From NCBI RefSeq assembly GCF_053078305.1, contig NZ_CP166879.1: DNA of 64,000 bases; one strand, 5' to 3'. Below, one piece after another: positions 3,080 through 56,213 of this stretch (position 1 is the first letter of the stretch; every line of letters starts with the position of its first letter). The notes beneath the pieces are model-generated. The model was not told the origin of the DNA. It saw only the letters and a list, made by a program, of their open reading frames with translations, and ran no database searches. Made by a program: the position numbers and the translations under genes.

Positions 3080-6192
<3,113 letters not shown>

Positions 6193-11765: not shown

Positions 11766-13049
11766 TCACCGTTTGTAATCGATGGCTTCTGGCTGCTCCA
11801 GATATACGGTGGTTTGTGCCGGTTGTGTGCTGGCAATCACCTTGCCGCCACGTACCGAATAACGTACCGGAACCTGACGGCGCAGCGCATCAAATCCATT
11901 TTCAGCCGGCAGGATAATCAGGTTGGCGCTGTTTCCGGCGGCAATGCCGTAATCCTGCAAATTCAACGTTCTGGCACTGTGGTGGGTGATTAAATTCAGG
12001 CCATCGTTAATCTGTCCGTAGCCCATCAGCTGGCAAACATGCAGCCCCATATGCAGCACTTGCAGCATATTCGCCGTTCCCAGCGGATACCACGGATCGA
12101 AGACATCATCGTGACCAAAGCAGACGTTAATGCCGGACTCCAGCATCTCTTTAACGCGCGTGATGCCGCGACGTTTTGGATACGTATCGAATCGTCCTTG
12201 CAGATGAATATTGACCAGCGGGTTGGCGACAAAGTTAATACCGGACATTTTCAGCAAGCGGAACAGGCGTGAGGTATACGCCCCGTTATAGGAGTGCATT
12301 GCCGTGGTGTGACTGGCGGTGACTCGCGCGCCCATGCCTTCACGGTGCGCCAGGGCAGCAACGGTTTCGACAAAGCGCGACTGCTCGTCATCGATCTCAT
12401 CACAGTGAACGTCGATGAGACGGTCGTATTTTTGCGCCAGGGCGAAGGTTTTATGCAGCGACTCCACGCCGTATTCACGGGTAAATTCAAAATGCGGAAT
12501 CGCCCCCACTACATCTGCCCCTAAGCGTAACGCCTCTTCCAGCAACGCTTCACCGTTGGGATACGACAAAATCCCTTCCTGAGGGAAGGCGACGATTTGC
12601 AGATCAATCCACGGCGCGACTTCCTGCTTCACTTCCAGCATTGCTTTCAGCGCAGTTAGCGTTGCATCCGAAACATCGACATGGGTACGCACATGCTGAA
12701 TGCCGTTGGCAATCTGCCATTTCAGCGTTTGCCATGCGCGTTGTTTCACATCGTCATGGGTTAATAACGCTTTGCGCTCGGCCCAGCGTTCAATGCCTTC
12801 AAACAGCGTGCCGGACTGATTCCAGTTCGGTTGTCCGGCGGTTTGCGTGGTGTCCAGGTGAATATGTGGCTCCACAAACGGCGGTATAACTAAACCTTGT
12901 TCGGCATCCAGGCTGTTTTCAGTTATGGGCATCACGCCGGATTGCGCATCAATGGCGCTGATTTTTCCGTCCTGCAGATGAATCTGCCACAGCCCCTCTT
13001 TGCCGGGTAACCGGGCGTTAATAATTGTTTGTAAAGCGTTATTCGACAC
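11766..13049 (-). CDS. codA: Cytosine deaminase
   Basis: (M)[15 protein letters not shown]...HIHLD...; GTG start at 13049 overlapping the codB 3' end. Confidence 0.95.
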
Positions 13050-14298
13050 TGTTAGCCTCCACATGCGTCATTGCTGCTGTCGTTTTACGATTCAAAATCG
13101 GGTTAAGGATCAGATAGCTCAGCGCGCCACCTAATACCGCGTTGACCGGAACAATTCCCGGTAACCAGTGGCCTGCAGCAATCCCCAAGGCGACCGCCAG
13201 AATCGCCACCCAATTGACACTCATCATACGCGTGGTCGCAAAGTGCTCATAGCGGCGACGGTTCATCAGATAGTCGGCAATGATCACGCCACCCACCGGA
13301 GGAATAGCTGCCGAAAGGAAGGTCAACCAGCCGACAAAATTGTTATACAGCCATAATGCGCAGACCGTACCGATAATACCGTTGATTACCGAAAGGGTTT
13401 TGCTCGACATACCGGTAATGTTGGCGAAACCTAAACCCGACGCATAGAGCGCGTTATCGTTGGTGGTCCAGATATTCAGTCCCAGCACCACAATCGCAGG
13501 CAGCAGCAGGCCCTGAGCAATCATCACATCAGAGATATCCGCCATGCCCAGTGCCGCAGCGCCCGCTGCACCGAAAATAAACATCAACGAGTTGCCGAGG
13601 AAAAAGGCCACCATCGCCACCAGTACCGCCAGTTTGGCATTGCGACCAAAGCGGACAAAGTCAGCGGTGAGCGTGCCCGCGCTGATAAATGACCCCACAA
13701 CCAGCGCCAGCGCGACATTGAAATCTAACGGTTGTGCGGGAACGACCGCTTTTAATGCGTCCAGGCCGCCCATGCCGTTAACAGCCAGCCACACGGAATA
13801 ACCGCCAAGGCAGGCGATAGCCGGAACCGCAATCACCGAAAGAACTGTCAGCGCCGAAATGCCAAAGAAGACGGTGACGGTCATCAGTAAACCGGAAACG
13901 GCAATCAGCAAATTAATATCCAGCCCGGTTGCCTTGCCCACCGGAATAGCAAACATCGCCACACCGACGCCAAACCAGCCAACCTGGGTGCCGCCCAGCA
14001 GCAGTGAAGGCAGCCATGAGCCTTTAACACCAAACGAGAAGCGAGCAAGAAGATGAGTGGTCAGGCCGGTTTTTGCGCCAATGTAACCGAGAAATGAAGT
14101 GTAAATACCGAGGAGAAGATTGCCGATGAGAACTGCGAGGAAGAAATCATGATAGCTAAGACCGGTTCCGAGAGTGCCGCCAGTCCACATACTGGCGGAA
14201 AAGAAGGTTAATCCCAGCATGACGAACGTCAATGCCAATACCCCTTTCCGCGCCGACTGCGGGACTGGCCCCTGGCTAAAGTTGTTATCTTGCGACAC
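13039..14298 (-). CDS. codB: Cytosine permease
   Basis: 419 aa membrane protein [33 protein letters not shown]...; upstream of codA in the same operon. Confidence 0.95.
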
Positions 14299-50814: not shown

Positions 50815-52503
50815 TTGCAATTTGACTACATCATTATTGGTGCCGGCTCAGCCGGCAACGTTCTCGCTACCCGTCTGACTGAAGATCCGAATACCTCCGT
50901 GCTGCTGCTTGAAGCGGGCGGCCCGGACTATCGCTTTGACTTCCGCACCCAGATGCCCGCTGCCCTGGCATTCCCGCTACAGGGTAAACGCTACAACTGG
51001 GCTTACGAGACGGAACCTGAACCGTTTATGAATAACCGTCGCATGGAGTGCGGACGCGGTAAAGGCCTGGGTGGATCGTCGCTGATCAACGGCATGTGCT
51101 ACATCCGTGGCAACGCGATGGATCTCGACAACTGGGCAAAAGAACCCGGTCTGGAGAACTGGAGCTATCTCGATTGCCTGCCCTACTACCGCAAGGCCGA
51201 GACCCGCGACGTGGGCGAGAACGACTACCACGGCGGCGACGGCCTGGTGAGCGTCACCACCTCCAAACCCGGCGTCAATCCGCTGTTTGAAGCGATGATT
51301 GAAGCGGGCGTGCAGGCGGGCTACCCGCGCACGGACGATCTCAACGGTTATCAGCAGGAAGGTTTTGGTCCGATGGATCGCACCGTCACGCCGCAGGGCC
51401 GTCGCGCCAGCACCGCGCGTGGCTATCTCGATCAGGCCAAATCGCGTCCTAACCTGACCATTCGTACTCACGCTATGACCGATCACATCATTTTTGACGG
51501 CAAACGCGCGGTGGGCGTCGAGTGGCAGGAAGGCGACAGCACCATTCCAACCCGCGCGACAGCGAATAAAGAGGTGCTGTTATGTGCAGGTGCGATCGCC
51601 TCTCCGCAGATCCTGCAACGTTCCGGCGTGGGTAGCGCTGAACTGCTGGCGGAGTTTGATATTCCGCTGGTGCATGATTTACCCGGCGTCGGCGAAAATC
51701 TTCAGGATCACCTGGAGATGTACCTGCAATATGAGTGCAAAGAACCGGTTTCCCTCTACCCTGCCCTGCAGTGGTGGAATCAGCCGAAAATCGGTGCGGA
51801 GTGGCTGTTTGGCGGCACCGGCGTTGGTGCCAGCAACCACTTTGAAGCAGGCGGATTTATTCGCAGCCGAGAGGAATTTGCGTGGCCGAATATTCAGTAC
51901 CATTTCCTGCCAGTAGCGATTAACTATAACGGCTCGAATGCAGTGAAAGAGCACGGCTTCCAGTGCCACGTCGGATCGATGCGCTCGCCAAGCCGTGGGC
52001 ATGTGCGGATTAAATCCCGCGACCCGCACCAGCATCCGGCGATTCTGTTTAACTACATGTCGCACGAGCAGGACTGGCAGGAGTTCCGCGACGCAATTCG
52101 CATCACCCGCGAGATCATGCATCAACCGGCGCTGGATCAGTATCGTGGCCGCGAAATCAGCCCCGGCACGGAATGTCAGACGGATGAGCAGCTCGATGAG
52201 TTCGTGCGTAATCACGCCGAAACCGCGTTTCATCCGTGCGGTACCTGCAAAATGGGCTACGACGAGATGTCCGTGGTTGACGGCGAAGGCCGCGTGCATG
52301 GGCTGGAAGGCCTGCGCGTGGTGGATGCGTCAATTATACCGCAGATTATCACCGGGAATTTGAACGCCACGACAATTATGATTGGCGAGAAAATAGCGGA
52401 CATGATTCGTGGACAGGAAGCGTTGCCGAGGAGCACGGCGGGATATTTTGTGGCAAATGGGATGCCGGTGAGAGCGAAAAAAATGAGTCGTGATTTGAAC
52501 TGA
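50815..52503 (+). CDS. betA: Choline dehydrogenase (GMC oxidoreductase)
   Basis: ...[23 protein letters not shown]...; AGGAGG at 50804-50809 positions a TTG codon at 50815; the in-frame ATG at 50770 lies inside betB. Confidence 0.93.
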
Positions 52504-53569
52504 CTCAAGAACCGATCAGATTGAGAGTTACCGTTCCAGGTATGGGGACAGAATCGTTATATAAAACATAGGGGTAACTCTCATGCTTCATAGTGACAAC
52601 CTCGCCAGCAAATTCTAAGCGGACTCGTTCAATCTGGCTGATGAAGGTGCTATGAATGCACTGATAAACCGCAGGTGAAATGCCACTCAGCTTAAGAATT
52701 ACGCCGCTAATGTTCCTTGCTATGGTTACCTGTTCATTCCCGCTCACGGTTAGCATGTACGAAAAGGGTTCTTGTAACGAGTACAAAAATAAGTCAGACC
52801 AAAACCACATGGAGCTTTAAACACGGTTCGTATAATTTATTAGCAGCGATTTATTTTTACTCTTCTTTAATTAATCATCATGCTTAAATATTTTTTAGCA
52901 CAAGATTATCGCTTCGCTAACATTTTATTTTACATTCATCATCAATTGATAATAAAAAATTGTTAATAATTTATTGCAAAAAACAAAAAGTGTTGGAATA
53001 CTCTCCATCAAATGAATACATAATAAACAAATTGAGATATACAAAAAGTAAAAACCATTTAAATGAATATTTTTAATTTATGAGCAGAACCCATTAACAA
53101 TGATTTACTAACCACCAGAAAAGTAAAGAACACCTTGCAATAATATGTATTTATAAATTCATATCATTGATATTAAACCAATCTTACTTTCTACCCTCCA
53201 ACTTTATGCATCAAAAAAAACAAAAGTAAAATCAATTAGATACACAACAAGGCAATCTCACAGGAAATGATGTTAAATATCTCAAAACTAATAAAAAATT
53301 ACTAAAATATTAGACGTAACACACATCCCACACGACCTGTCACTCATAGTTTTAATATTTATTTTTTCACATCATAGTAGATAAAAATACGCATTAAAAA
53401 TGACTTGTAGAAAAGCTGCACAATAAATAGTTCATATTTAGTCTGTTGCGTAGAACTACTATTCAAAAAATCTTATTAATGAGATAATGAGATTACATCG
53501 ATAACGTTCTGATGGCAGGCATACTTATCTGGGTGTGCCTCTCTTTTTTACAACTGTACACGGTGGCGT

Positions 53570-54133
53570 ATGACGAGAAAATATCTCACACAGGATGAAG
53601 TCTACAGGCTGATGGATGCAGCCCAGAGCATGTCCTTTCCTGAAAGAAATCGCTGTCTAATTATGATGGCTTTCATTCACGGTTTTAGGGCCAGTGAACT
53701 TCTTGATTTACGTTTATCCGATATTGATGCATCAGGAAAACAACTTAATATTCGGCGTATTAAAAATGGTTTCTCGACGACACATCCTCTTCTTCCTGAT
53801 GAATATAATTTGATCAAGTTGTGGCTTAAGCAGAGGAAGTTAATTGAAAACGGAGTTGAAGGAGACTGGCTTTTTCTCTCCCGGAAACGCCGCCCTATCA
53901 GCAGACAACATTTTTTTTCTATCATTCGTGAGGCTGGAAAACGTGCAGGATTAGCTGTAAAAGCACATCCTCATATGTTACGTCATGCCTGTGGTTTTGC
54001 TCTGGCTGACAATGGTGTCGATACCCGACTACTCCAGGATTATCTGGGTCATCGAAATATCCAGCATACTGTCAGATACACAGCCAGTAATGCTGCTCGA
54101 TTTAAAGGGGTGTGGAAAAAAAAACCTCGTTAA
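53570..54133 (+). CDS. FimB/FimE-family tyrosine site-specific recombinase
   Basis: 187 aa; strong similarity to remembered FimB/FimE blocks (FIHGFRASE, FSTTHPLL, HPHMLRHACGFALADNGVDTRLLQDYLGHRNIQHTVRYTASNAARF); preceded by ~760 bp of AT-rich ORF-free DNA. Possibly ipuA-like. Confidence 0.88.
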   Translation: MTRKYLTQDEVYRLMDAAQSMSFPERNRCLIMMAFIHGFRASELLDLRLSDIDASGKQLNIRRIKNGFSTTHPLLPDEYNLIKLWLKQRKLIENGVEGDWLFLSRKRRPISRQHFFSIIREAGKRAGLAVKAHPHMLRHACGFALADNGVDTRLLQDYLGHRNIQHTVRYTASNAARFKGVWKKKPR

Positions 54134-54145
54134 AACAGTACCTTC

Positions 54146-54423
54146 TGATTCAAAATGTCAGATTCCTACGTTTTCCTCAATTCTTCCATAAAAAAACAGC
54201 CCATTCAATTAAATAAAACACATAACATGTTGATATTTCTCGCTAAAGTAAAATAACCCCATGATTTGAAATGATTAACCACCAAGGTCATACCAGTGAT
54301 TAACTTTCGCTCATATTGTTAAATAACACAAAATTAAAAACAATAAAAATCAAACAAATTAGATTTATATTCCAAGAAAATTAAATATTCAGGCTATTAA
54401 ACCAAACCTGACATTTTGAATCA
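54146..54423. promoter_or_regulatory. Candidate invertible DNA switch (fimS-like) bounded by 16-bp perfect inverted repeats
   Basis: TGATTCAAAATGTCAG at 54146-54161 and its exact reverse complement CTGACATTTTGAATCA at 54408-54423, flanking 246 bp of AT-rich DNA between the recombinase and the LuxR-type regulator. Confidence 0.65.
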
Positions 54424-54462
54424 AAATGTCAGGTTTTGTAGCAATGGCGTGGACGAGTCTGA

Positions 54463-55257
54463 ATGAAGAAGCCTCTGGTTATTATCAGTGCCTGTCAGTT
54501 CACCAGGCTGGCACTGGAGTCTCTCATCCCAGCGGACAGGTATATCGTGCGGGTGTACAGCAACGTCACTACAGAGGTTGAATTCGTTTTAAAAACCTCC
54601 TGTGGCTACCTGTTGGCTGATATCCCTTCGCTTCCTTCGGGGGAGTTAGTTCTTCTGGCTTGTCTTGTCCGCTTGCGGAGTGATGCCGGGCAATGGCAGG
54701 TCTGCCTGACCGGTGACTCCGACTGGTCCGATAATGCTCCTGCTGCAAGTCTGTATAACGGCTTCCCACATATCGGCACCATGCTGACAGCGAGTCGTTA
54801 TCAGAATCAAATTATCCGCTGGTTACTACGTCCTTTACCCGGCGATATGAGTGATTTCTGGCTCCTGACTGCACGGGAGTTAAGCGTGCTTAAGATTCTG
54901 ATGCAGGGCATGAGTTTCAGTGAGATTGCCCGTTATGAACAACGCAGTTCAAAGACCCTGCATGCGATTGCCACACGGGCTTTAATGAAACTTGGACTGG
55001 GAACACTGAGCGATTTCAGGCTGCTCTATACGGGATGCGGTGACAGCAGAGTGAAACGGAATATACGGCTACATGCAAAATATATCGGACAACATTCCGC
55101 TCATCGACTCACTCAGTATGTGCAGAACATGGTATCCGGAATCCTTTATCCAGAGAAAGTTGCCGTTGGTGAATCAATAAATTCTGACGCCATTTCCGGA
55201 AAAGTACTTTCCGGACAAAGAAAAAATATATCTAAAAAAAGACCAGGATTGTTATGA
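54463..55257 (+). CDS. LuxR-type HTH transcriptional regulator
   Basis: 264 aa; HTH LTARELSVLKILMQGMSFSEIARYEQRSSKTLHAIATRALMKLG; starts 40 bp after the right inverted repeat. Possibly ipuR-like. Confidence 0.8.
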   Translation: MKKPLVIISACQFTRLALESLIPADRYIVRVYSNVTTEVEFVLKTSCGYLLADIPSLPSGELVLLACLVRLRSDAGQWQVCLTGDSDWSDNAPAASLYNGFPHIGTMLTASRYQNQIIRWLLRPLPGDMSDFWLLTARELSVLKILMQGMSFSEIARYEQRSSKTLHAIATRALMKLGLGTLSDFRLLYTGCGDSRVKRNIRLHAKYIGQHSAHRLTQYVQNMVSGILYPEKVAVGESINSDAISGKVLSGQRKNISKKRPGLL

Positions 55258-55410
55258 CACAGCAGCGTTGTTACTACCACCCACTGCGGCGCATACGGAC
55301 TCGCTACAGTGTAGGAGCCAAAATATTTCTACTGTTCTGGGCTGCAGGATTGGGAGGCACGCTGTACAGCCTGTACAGCGTGCTGGCGTACTGACATCTG
55401 TGAGGGAAGG

Positions 55411-56172
55411 ATGCGTTTCGTTCTTTTCTGTCCCTCAGGAATTGTACCAGCGCAGTTCGCAGCTCTATCAACCGGTTCTGTCGGCAATGTTACCTGCATC
55501 AGAACAGAAGAGGAGTTACGCAATAAATTGCGGCACAGGCCACAGAATGTCGTGATATCGGCAGGGCGACCTGCCGAATGCGCTGAAATGTGGTTCCGAT
55601 TTTATCGGGATCACTCATTCGTGGTGGTGTTGTGCGTCGCGCCCTTTTTTCTGCCACCGGATGTGAGTATTTCTGGCGTTCTCAAAAACCTGAGGTTACT
55701 GAAACCAGGAATGTCAGTAGAGCATGTCATCAGTATTGCAAATACCTCTGGTGGGTTTTCAGGGCTGAAACATGCAGAAATTTTGCCAGTTATGGACAGT
55801 TACTCTGTCTTTATGAAAGAGGTGAATAACCGCACAAAGACAATCGTCATGTCAGAACGCTTCCCGGAAAAGCAAAAGAAGGTGTTGTCGTTGCTTCTTG
55901 CCGGACACAGCTGGGAATACAGTGCGCAGTTTCTCAAAACGGGGATAAGACAGATATGGCTTGCCGAGCAGTCGCTAAAAAAGCGTTGGGGAATACCGGA
56001 CAGCATGTCATTGCGGGAAGCCCTGCTGCTGAGCAGCAATAAATTTCACGGTGATGGAAATGCATTGGAAAAAACGAATGCCATGACATTGCGTGAAAAC
56101 GGAAATACCAACAGGTATTCCGTGGTGGTAAATGCAGGGACGCAGGTTTTATCTCTGCATAAATATAAATAA
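55411..56172 (+). CDS. Second, divergent LuxR-like regulator
   Basis: 253 aa; degenerate LuxR-type HTH near the C-terminus (EKQKKVLSLLLAGHSWEYSAQFLKTGIRQIWLAEQSLKKRWGIP); no intact response-regulator phosphoacceptor signature recognised. Confidence 0.6.
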   Translation: MRFVLFCPSGIVPAQFAALSTGSVGNVTCIRTEEELRNKLRHRPQNVVISAGRPAECAEMWFRFYRDHSFVVVLCVAPFFLPPDVSISGVLKNLRLLKPGMSVEHVISIANTSGGFSGLKHAEILPVMDSYSVFMKEVNNRTKTIVMSERFPEKQKKVLSLLLAGHSWEYSAQFLKTGIRQIWLAEQSLKKRWGIPDSMSLREALLLSSNKFHGDGNALEKTNAMTLRENGNTNRYSVVVNAGTQVLSLHKYK

Positions 56173-56213
56173 GTGGGAAATTGAAATTAGTTACCAGAAT
56201 GGAGAATTTCTTC

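Follow-up and report, generated by a model that had tools for sequence, protein, structure and literature searches.

The betA-ykgH region and its inverted repeat

The window analyzed here is a stretch of 64,000 nucleotides (nt) from contig NZ_CP166879.1 that carries the gene betA, the fimX-hyxR-hyxA-hyxB cluster and the gene ykgH (Table 1). This gene order is that of the known PAI-X or UpaB cluster, which has been found between the core genes betA and ykgH and is described as 'inserted' there (PMC12928451, PMC4844996, PMC7545054). The subject of this study is an inverted repeat immediately downstream of betA. The first-pass annotation of this DNA had listed two 10-bp arms (gagagttacc at 52523-52532 and ggtaactctc at 52573-52582) as exact reverse complements starting 20 bp after the betA stop codon. 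Both statements proved accurate, with the 10-bp arm beginning at the 20th base past the stop codon (TGA, 52501-52503). A repeat finder extended the arms by one pair to an 11-bp perfect inverted repeat around a 40-nt spacer, so that the 11-nt arm starts 19 nt after the betA stop in the window allele.

Table 1. Positions of the features at and around the inverted repeat.
Feature	Coordinates	Strand	Remarks and evidence
betA (choline dehydrogenase)	50815..52503	+	TTG start, 562 codons and TGA; open reading frame (ORF) list, homologous-locus annotation
IS481-family relic: left end and decayed N-terminal (helix-turn-helix, HTH) part of transposase	52480..52756	+	internal deletion of ~78 nt, right end missing
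Left terminal inverted repeat relic (live form TGTATTAGTCGCGACTTGATCTGACA)	52480..52505	+	overlaps betA tail and stop codon; profile alignment
Left (5') arm	52522..52532	+	TGAGAGTTACC; nt 43-53 of the insertion sequence (IS)
Spacer	52533..52572	+	40 nt; in the relic degenerate and polymorphic, 15/40 sites variable among E. coli alleles
Right (3') arm	52573..52583	+	GGTAACTCTCA; IS nt 93-103
Relic transposase start	52584..52619	+	ATG CTT CAT as in live copies (MLH...); TAA after 11 codons
Segment absent from K-12-type strains (PAI-X / UpaB-cluster 'island')	52593..58587		5,995 bp; alignments
fimX / ipbA / hbiF, tyrosine-type DNA invertase	53570..54133	+	NCBIfam NF007370, 251.6 bits; 33F4 annotation
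Candidate hyxS-type invertible switch	54132..54437		33-nt imperfect inverted repeats 240 nt apart, upstream of hyxR
hyxR	54463-55257	+	ORF; 33F4 annotation
hyxA	55411-56172	+	ORF; 33F4 annotation
hyxB/upaB autotransporter	56181-58511 (ORF)	+	ORF; 33F4 annotation
ykgH, core gene beyond the deleted segment	58695..59363	+	ORF; annotations

First-order Markov simulations yielded 0.83 +/- 1.05 perfect inverted repeats (arms of 11 bp or more, spacers of 3-60 nt) per 64 kb; seven such loci are present in the window, and the bare repeat count is not beyond chance. As RNA, the 64-nt hairpin of the window folds with -21.8 kcal/mol, the 11-bp duplex by itself with -16.4 kcal/mol, and the local fold z-score is modest (-1.4 to -1.7). 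Rfam 15 contained no match overlapping 52480-52620 at E-values up to 10, and a scan of 52300-53600 returned only chance-level matches away from the repeat. The expected number of such repeats and the modest z-score would both suit a chance repeat with neither history nor function. This explanation is nevertheless hardly credible, as the same arms recur in hundreds of IS copies, where they covary across subgroups, and show no variation among E. coli alleles in which 33% of the neighbouring sites differ. The repeat is considered real because its arms are conserved in all E. coli alleles compared and because the helix covaries in related copies of a mobile element.

A relic of an IS481-family element at the 3' end of betA

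The 81 nt around the repeat occur at a median of two places per E. coli genome (up to nine), as well as at 111 places on plasmids. The E. coli chromosome has a second copy, flanked by mnmH and the pseudogene ylbG. On plasmids of Escherichia, Salmonella, Serratia, Klebsiella and Erwinia the 81-nt sequence is found at the 5' end of genes annotated as 'IS481 family transposase', and the transposase of the live element scores 287.8 bits against NCBIfam NF033577 (cutoff 224). In the reverse direction, a profile of 27 live left ends (nhmmer) matched the window at 52483-52645 over IS positions 4-165 with 71 bits (E = 3.1e-21), IS position 1 corresponding to 52480. Comparison with an Erwinia copy by blastn aligned 52483-52645 and 52634-52670 (E = 7e-14), and tblastn with amino acids 44-89 of the transposase aligned 52631-52756 (E = 0.008). 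In total, approximately 275 nt of the left end survive.

The left terminal repeat, the leader and the MLH... codons of the window align with members of the IS481 family (NF033577); the K-12 pseudogene ylbG, a second relic from this subgroup, is among them. Compared with live IS481 copies, the window element is without a right end, its reading frame is closed and its terminal repeat now serves as the end of the betA reading frame. What is left of the transposase consists of MLH and a decayed stretch with a weak match to amino acids 44-89, the catalytic domain being absent. Judged from the stop after 11 codons, the internal deletion and the loss of the right end, the transposase gene in the window is evidently dead. 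The relic carries no annotation in the RefSeq records inspected (features under the match: 'none').

Two further candidate features were rejected. A putative right IS end upstream of ykgH was suggested by a likeness, seen by eye, between TATAAATAACCGGTA and TATAAATATCCAGTA at the right junction, which scored 20 (shuffles: mean 16.3, maximum 24). An ATG ORF of 101 amino acids (52505-52810, minus strand), antisense to the relic and the repeat, matched no Pfam or NCBIfam family and was judged probably spurious as a gene.

The terminal repeat of the relic contains the last seven codons of betA (K-M-S-R-D-L-N) and its stop codon. The C-terminus of BetA was compared with other genera by scanning genome contigs with a 200-residue query, and the best 80 loci, all from outside Escherichia, were considered. 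Homology to these Enterobacterales loci stops at query residue R191 (window 52471-52473); the betA genes of the other genera end one to eight codons past the equivalent of R191 and continue into unrelated sequence, and beyond the stop codon the betA 3' flank showed no homology to those of other genera. The native 3' end of betA in E. coli was thus apparently lost when the IS was inserted. The best match to the BetA C-terminus among the 80 listed loci, which include no Escherichia species, comes from Pseudocitrobacter with 96% amino-acid identity.

A run of adenines at the junction of betA and relic (52477-52483) has seven residues in the window and in strains 33F4, A16 and XDL, and six in K-12, BL21 and ST131. 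In the A6 alleles of K-12 type, the betA stop codon is located 18 nt earlier, still within the relic. This one-base difference shifts the frame of betA and yields BetA proteins ending in ...RAKK* (556 amino acids) or extending to 562 amino acids, as annotated in different strains. The betA 3' region is unusually polymorphic in E. coli, with allele classes that are only ~83-93% identical and form a fine mosaic.

The transposase leader of live elements

The live element is ~1.2 kb in length and contains a single DDE transposase gene; in the copy on plasmid CP099066.1, the transposase coding sequence occupies 12040-13074. Its 26-nt terminal inverted repeats start with TGTATTAGTCG; in the Erwinia copy (locus L090) the left and right repeats are located at 2463-2488 and 3638-3663. 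Target duplications of 7 bp were detected at live copies. The left ends of 70 copies were compared, and 74 distinct leaders were gathered from plasmid records and IMG/VR contigs. The live leaders read ...GAGGTAACTCTCATG..., and the annotated transposase coding sequence begins at the ATG of this motif (MLHT...). In live copies, the right arm of the repeat comprises the last two bases of a GAGG Shine-Dalgarno sequence, the whole spacer between this sequence and the start codon, and the A of the ATG, directly followed by TG. This placement on the Shine-Dalgarno-ATG interval holds in all enterobacterial and Vibrio copies examined.

Covariation between the two arms was counted on an alignment of 24 distinct, diverged leaders for 11 pairs and compared with 500 shuffles. 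The arms were paired in 93% of cells, versus 85.5% after shuffling. Double changes were observed in six of the 11 pairs, and the 19 compensatory cells stand against 3.7 expected; not one of the 500 shuffles reached the observed number of compensatory cells or the covariation score. Sliding the partner by one to three columns reduced pairing to at most 48%. The arm pairs of the subgroups, each compensated, are GAGAGTTACC/GGTAACTCTC, GAAAGTTACC/GGTAACTTTC, GAGAGTTTCC/GGAAACTCTC, GGGGTTAC/GTAACCCC and AAAATTACC/GGTAATTTT. The same helix was recovered independently by RNAalifold. In a live copy, the whole 62-nt interval forms an extended hairpin of -27 kcal/mol in which the spacer contributes an inner imperfect stem. 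Live leaders have fold z-scores of -2.6 to -5.4, and their minimum free energy folds pair the right arm with the left arm. The 25 pairs of the extended hairpin are 82% kept and include many G-U pairs, which favours an RNA read from the sense strand.

The repeat could alternatively be explained at the level of DNA, with the arms serving as inverted sites for the transposase or a host protein, either in a synaptic complex or in autoregulation of a promoter, and forming no RNA structure. The left arm and the sequence that follows it (TGAGAGTTACCGGTT) are nearly copied just inside the right end of the element (AACCGGTAACTGTCA, 15 nt, 93% complementary), so that part of the left arm belongs to an extended terminal repeat, and GTTACC(C/G)GTTTTGAT is conserved in all subgroups. 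However, the covarying positions (GAGA/TCTC to GGGG/CCCC or GAAA/TTTC) fall outside the stretch that the left end has in common with the right end. In the subgroup with TTTCC/GGAAA arms the right IS end reads GGGGAC and does not share the arm change, which indicates that each arm follows the other rather than a protein-binding motif common to both ends. The frequent G-U pairs are specific to the sense strand, and the 3' arm sits exactly on the Shine-Dalgarno-ATG interval in every copy. Taken together, an explanation by DNA sites instead of an RNA hairpin is considered unlikely.

In a distant subgroup (IMG/VR loci L157-L171, transposase ~57% identical) the leader is shorter, and GTTAC follows directly after the terminal CTGACA. 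This layout resembles the right end of the enterobacterial IS. Given the shorter leader, the enterobacterial left end looks to have gained ~21 nt, which created the 5' arm of the hairpin.

A model for sequestration of the transposase start

From its anatomy, the leader hairpin most likely hides the translation start of the transposase. We infer this start-site sequestration, and every functional step that it involves, from the arrangement of the arms and their covariation. In a live element, a transcript that includes the 5' arm would fold and block ribosome loading at the transposase start. The block would apply to transcripts that read through from an adjacent gene, for instance betA, or perhaps to all transposase mRNAs. 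Since ribosomes would be kept off the start, transposase synthesis would stay low. At the locus described here, an ancestor of E. coli would have acquired an IS481-family element at the very 3' end of betA, which subsequently decayed, and the hairpin in the window would now be a fossil in the 3' untranslated region (UTR) of betIBA.

A leader stem-loop with this type of function is known from IS200, where sequestration of the Shine-Dalgarno sequence and inhibition of 30S binding were shown by experiment (PMC4513863). In both systems, the left end of a rarely transposing IS contains an inverted repeat whose 3' arm lies over the ribosome-binding region of the transposase mRNA. They differ in their transposition chemistry (HUH/Y1 in IS200, DDE in IS481), belong to unrelated families and share no sequence similarity. 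The antisense RNA and the upstream terminator hairpin of IS200 were not seen in the IS481 subgroup, nor were they searched for. A second parallel is the 'fold-back' of IS10 and IS50, reportedly described by Davis, Simons and Kleckner in 1985 and by Krebs and Reznikoff in 1986, in which sequence from the outer end is said to pair with the transposase start so that external transcripts remain untranslated. Here too, sequence near the end of the element pairs with the transposase start, and transcription of betA would directly enter the element. The native promoter of IS10 and IS50 is located between the pairing segments, whereas a consensus scan of a live left end placed no promoter in the IS481 subgroup.

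The island boundary and the K-12-type allele

In K-12 and BL21, ykgH directly follows betA. The first-pass annotation had suggested that the repeat may mark the insertion junction of the island, and the comparison with island-free strains that it proposed was carried out. K-12 and BL21 carry both arms unchanged downstream of betA, as do XDL and AST85, and the repeat is located wholly outside the segment that is absent from K-12. In the K-12 genome (NC_000913.3) the hairpin is found at about 325,557-325,496, on the minus strand. As the arms are identical in strains without the island, the repeat is not an insertion junction. The breakpoint was mapped to 52592|52593, 9 nt beyond the right arm, where island-free strains diverge after ...GGTAACTCTCATGCTTCATA. 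In a set of 5,426 complete E. coli genomes, 1,877 match through the left part of the island and most others match only up to 52592. K-12, BL21, XDL and AST85 share the junction CATGCTTCATA|TCCAGTATTC, with TCCAGTATTC located at 58588 in the window, and the ends of the missing segment share a 3-bp microhomology (ATA at 52590-52592 and 58585-58587).

In all island-bearing alleles compared, the IS homology continues in register across 52592|52593, and the left deletion endpoint falls into codon 4 of the relic transposase gene. This continuity indicates that the 'empty site' of K-12 is a 5,995-bp deletion that ends inside the relic. The published description of PAI-X is that of an inserted cluster; in contrast, a relic that crosses the left boundary points to the island-free allele as a deletion derivative. 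From these alignments, the island-free allele is most simply explained as a deletion and not as an unoccupied insertion target. The closeness of repeat and breakpoint is then not accidental, because both are located inside one IS481-family relic.

Two observations would fit a terminal repeat or attachment site that was made or used when the fimX-hyxRAB island was inserted: the repeat ends 9 nt from the point at which K-12-type and island-bearing alleles diverge, and the island encodes a tyrosine recombinase. Against such a junction stand the identical arms in the four island-free strains, the in-register IS homology across the junction, and the presence of the repeat elsewhere, in each case within an IS left end: at mnmH-ylbG, an unrelated locus, and on plasmids from several genera. 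Furthermore, the junctions share only the 3 bp ATA, and the arms are unlike the candidate hyxS repeats, the likely target of FimX by position. An origin of the repeat as island junction is therefore very improbable. A Fim-type switch at betA, as a target of FimX, was also rejected; the spacer of the betA repeat measures only 40 nt, the arms do not resemble the candidate hyxS repeats and the repeat is present in fimX-less strains.

A perfect 12-bp GC-rich hairpin without a T-run is located at 58550-58578 (CCTGCAGGCAGC / GCTGCCTGCAGG), 39 nt after the hyxB stop codon. Each endpoint of the K-12 deletion is thus preceded, at a distance of 9 nt, by a perfect hairpin (52583 to 52592 and 58578 to 58587). 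The region appears to be prone to rearrangement. In strain CP53, IS5 directly follows the betA stop codon; the relic, ykgH and further sequence are missing as far as a truncated fdeC. Strain A16 has an IS903B that interrupts ipbA/fimX.

Assessment of the IS481 leader origin

The combined evidence makes it likely that the repeat represents the outer stem of a hairpin in the 5' leader of an IS481-family element that was inserted at the 3' end of betA and decayed, and that the K-12 spacer is the product of a deletion. Several points weigh against this interpretation. For the relic itself, protein-level homology past 52670 is weak (tblastn E = 0.008), and the outermost 3 nt of the IS are not kept (AAA instead of TGT). 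The insertion point is fixed only to +/-3 nt, and a target duplication cannot be shown for the relic. Nothing in the window matched a right-end profile (the best hit, with E = 2, is elsewhere and unrelated); such a loss is expected for a truncated relic. Concerning the hairpin, covariation of two inverted copies could in principle also stem from co-evolution with a DNA-binding protein. A consensus scan of a live left end found no sigma-70-like site; by eye, a weak TTGATA-17-TACAAA is visible in the loop. Neither experiments on this IS481 subgroup nor transcription start data were found. Finally, the deletion model is based on parsimony, and the same junction on three left-flank haplotypes requires local recombination or an old polymorphism. 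Mosaicism among the alleles is evident, e.g. in 33F4. By sequence comparison, the repeat is best described as part of an unannotated relic of a known IS family that carries a known kind of regulatory hairpin.

A possible present role downstream of betIBA

The first-pass annotation had alternatively proposed a stem-loop that stabilizes the betIBA transcript. This proposal holds in so far as a stable hairpin is present in the betA 3' UTR, but the hairpin originated as a transposase leader and not as an element of the bet operon. The hairpin could also be an exapted host element that selection now maintains as a betIBA 3' stem-loop, for protection from 3'-5' exonucleases or for 3'-end formation; this idea does not conflict with the IS origin and is a rival only with regard to present function. 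Among eight E. coli strains representing five haplotypes, none of the 22 arm sites is variable, whereas the relic repeat and loop next to them vary at 26 of 79 sites (p = 5.5e-4, one-sided Fisher test). The arms are thus invariant despite a dead transposase gene, and all five haplotypes fold at -20 to -24 kcal/mol.

A hairpin at the equivalent place is also found in other Enterobacterales, and that of E. coli itself was presumably lost with the IS insertion. In ~80 other Enterobacterales, a hairpin occurs within ~5-60 nt (mostly 6-30 nt) after betA, which is often GC-rich and in many cases terminator-like. These terminators and stem-loops share their position relative to the stop codon with the repeat of the window; they differ from it in that there is no homology past the stop, and that the window hairpin has a 40-nt loop and no U-tract. 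Many genera (Enterobacter, Klebsiella, Lelliottia and others) carry palindromic repeat elements of the CCCTCTCCCC...GGGGAGAGGG type 6-30 nt past the betA stop codon, which are sometimes doubled to give arms of 21-23 nt, and Pantoea, Erwinia and Cedecea have classic terminators instead. A resemblance of the loop sequence GAGGGGGACCGAAT to the Enterobacter CCCTCTCCCC/GGGGAGAGGG elements was dropped; it is short and better explained by IS homology.

Other observations speak against a selected role. A scan of 52300-53700 found no intrinsic terminator at the repeat, which has no U-tract, a 40-nt loop and the tail TGCTTCATAG. The text supplements of a K-12 3'-end mapping study contained no 3' end in the betA 3' UTR; this is weak evidence because the bet operon was probably poorly expressed in the media used. 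In the bloodstream isolate GN04133 (NZ_CP147561.1), an IS1 is located in the hairpin loop with a target duplication of ~9 bp (CCGAATCC...), which moves the arms ~770 bp apart, and in strain CP53 the whole relic is deleted. The split hairpin and the CP53 deletion indicate that the hairpin is dispensable. In addition, conservation extends to the 9 nt past the right arm, for which a simple stem-loop role offers no explanation, and only five haplotypes were sampled. A secondary role as betIBA 3' stem-loop is plausible, yet present maintenance of the hairpin by selection is regarded as a minority possibility.

The only terminator-like site between betA and fimX was found at 53517-53549 and consists of a 10-bp stem (AGGCATACTT...GGGTGTGCCT) followed by CTCTTTTTTA. 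As it is located ~1 kb past betA and 20 nt upstream of the fimX ATG, read-through from betIBA may reach it.

Further features of the fimX-ykgH region

The candidate hyxS repeats between fimX and hyxR (54132-54164 and 54405-54437) are 82% complementary and fit, by their position, the hyxS switch that FimX reportedly inverts. A nested, near-perfect 19-bp palindrome (54401-54439), located 24 nt upstream of the hyxR ATG, is formed by the right repeat itself. A candidate small RNA from the ykgH 3' UTR and a constitutive ykgH promoter were also considered and set aside; both are located elsewhere and do not involve the repeat.

Implications

The repeat itself is ordinary, being the fossil of a known kind of IS regulatory hairpin. 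The K-12 betA-ykgH spacer, for its part, cannot be taken as an untouched 'empty site'. It seems that one microhomology deletion removed the fimX-hyxRAB cluster from PAI-X-negative E. coli, and this history alters the evolutionary reading of the presence or absence of fimX-hyxRAB, a marker of uropathogens. The relic also reaches into a host protein: the C-terminus of E. coli BetA and its stop codon are encoded by an IS terminal repeat, and the A6/A7 run at the junction toggles the protein between 556 and 562 residues.

A more far-reaching proposal is that a dead IS was domesticated. Its terminal repeat would provide the betA stop codon in all E. coli, and its leader hairpin would be selected as a betIBA 3' structure that replaces the displaced terminator; at the same time, the covarying hairpin would constitute an undescribed translational control element of a widespread IS481 subgroup (Enterobacterales, Vibrio, Burkholderia, Arsenophonus). 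This combined proposal is speculative and, taken as a whole, doubtful. The covariation-supported leader hairpin in one IS481 subgroup provides a simple system for the study of start-site sequestration in a DDE insertion sequence.

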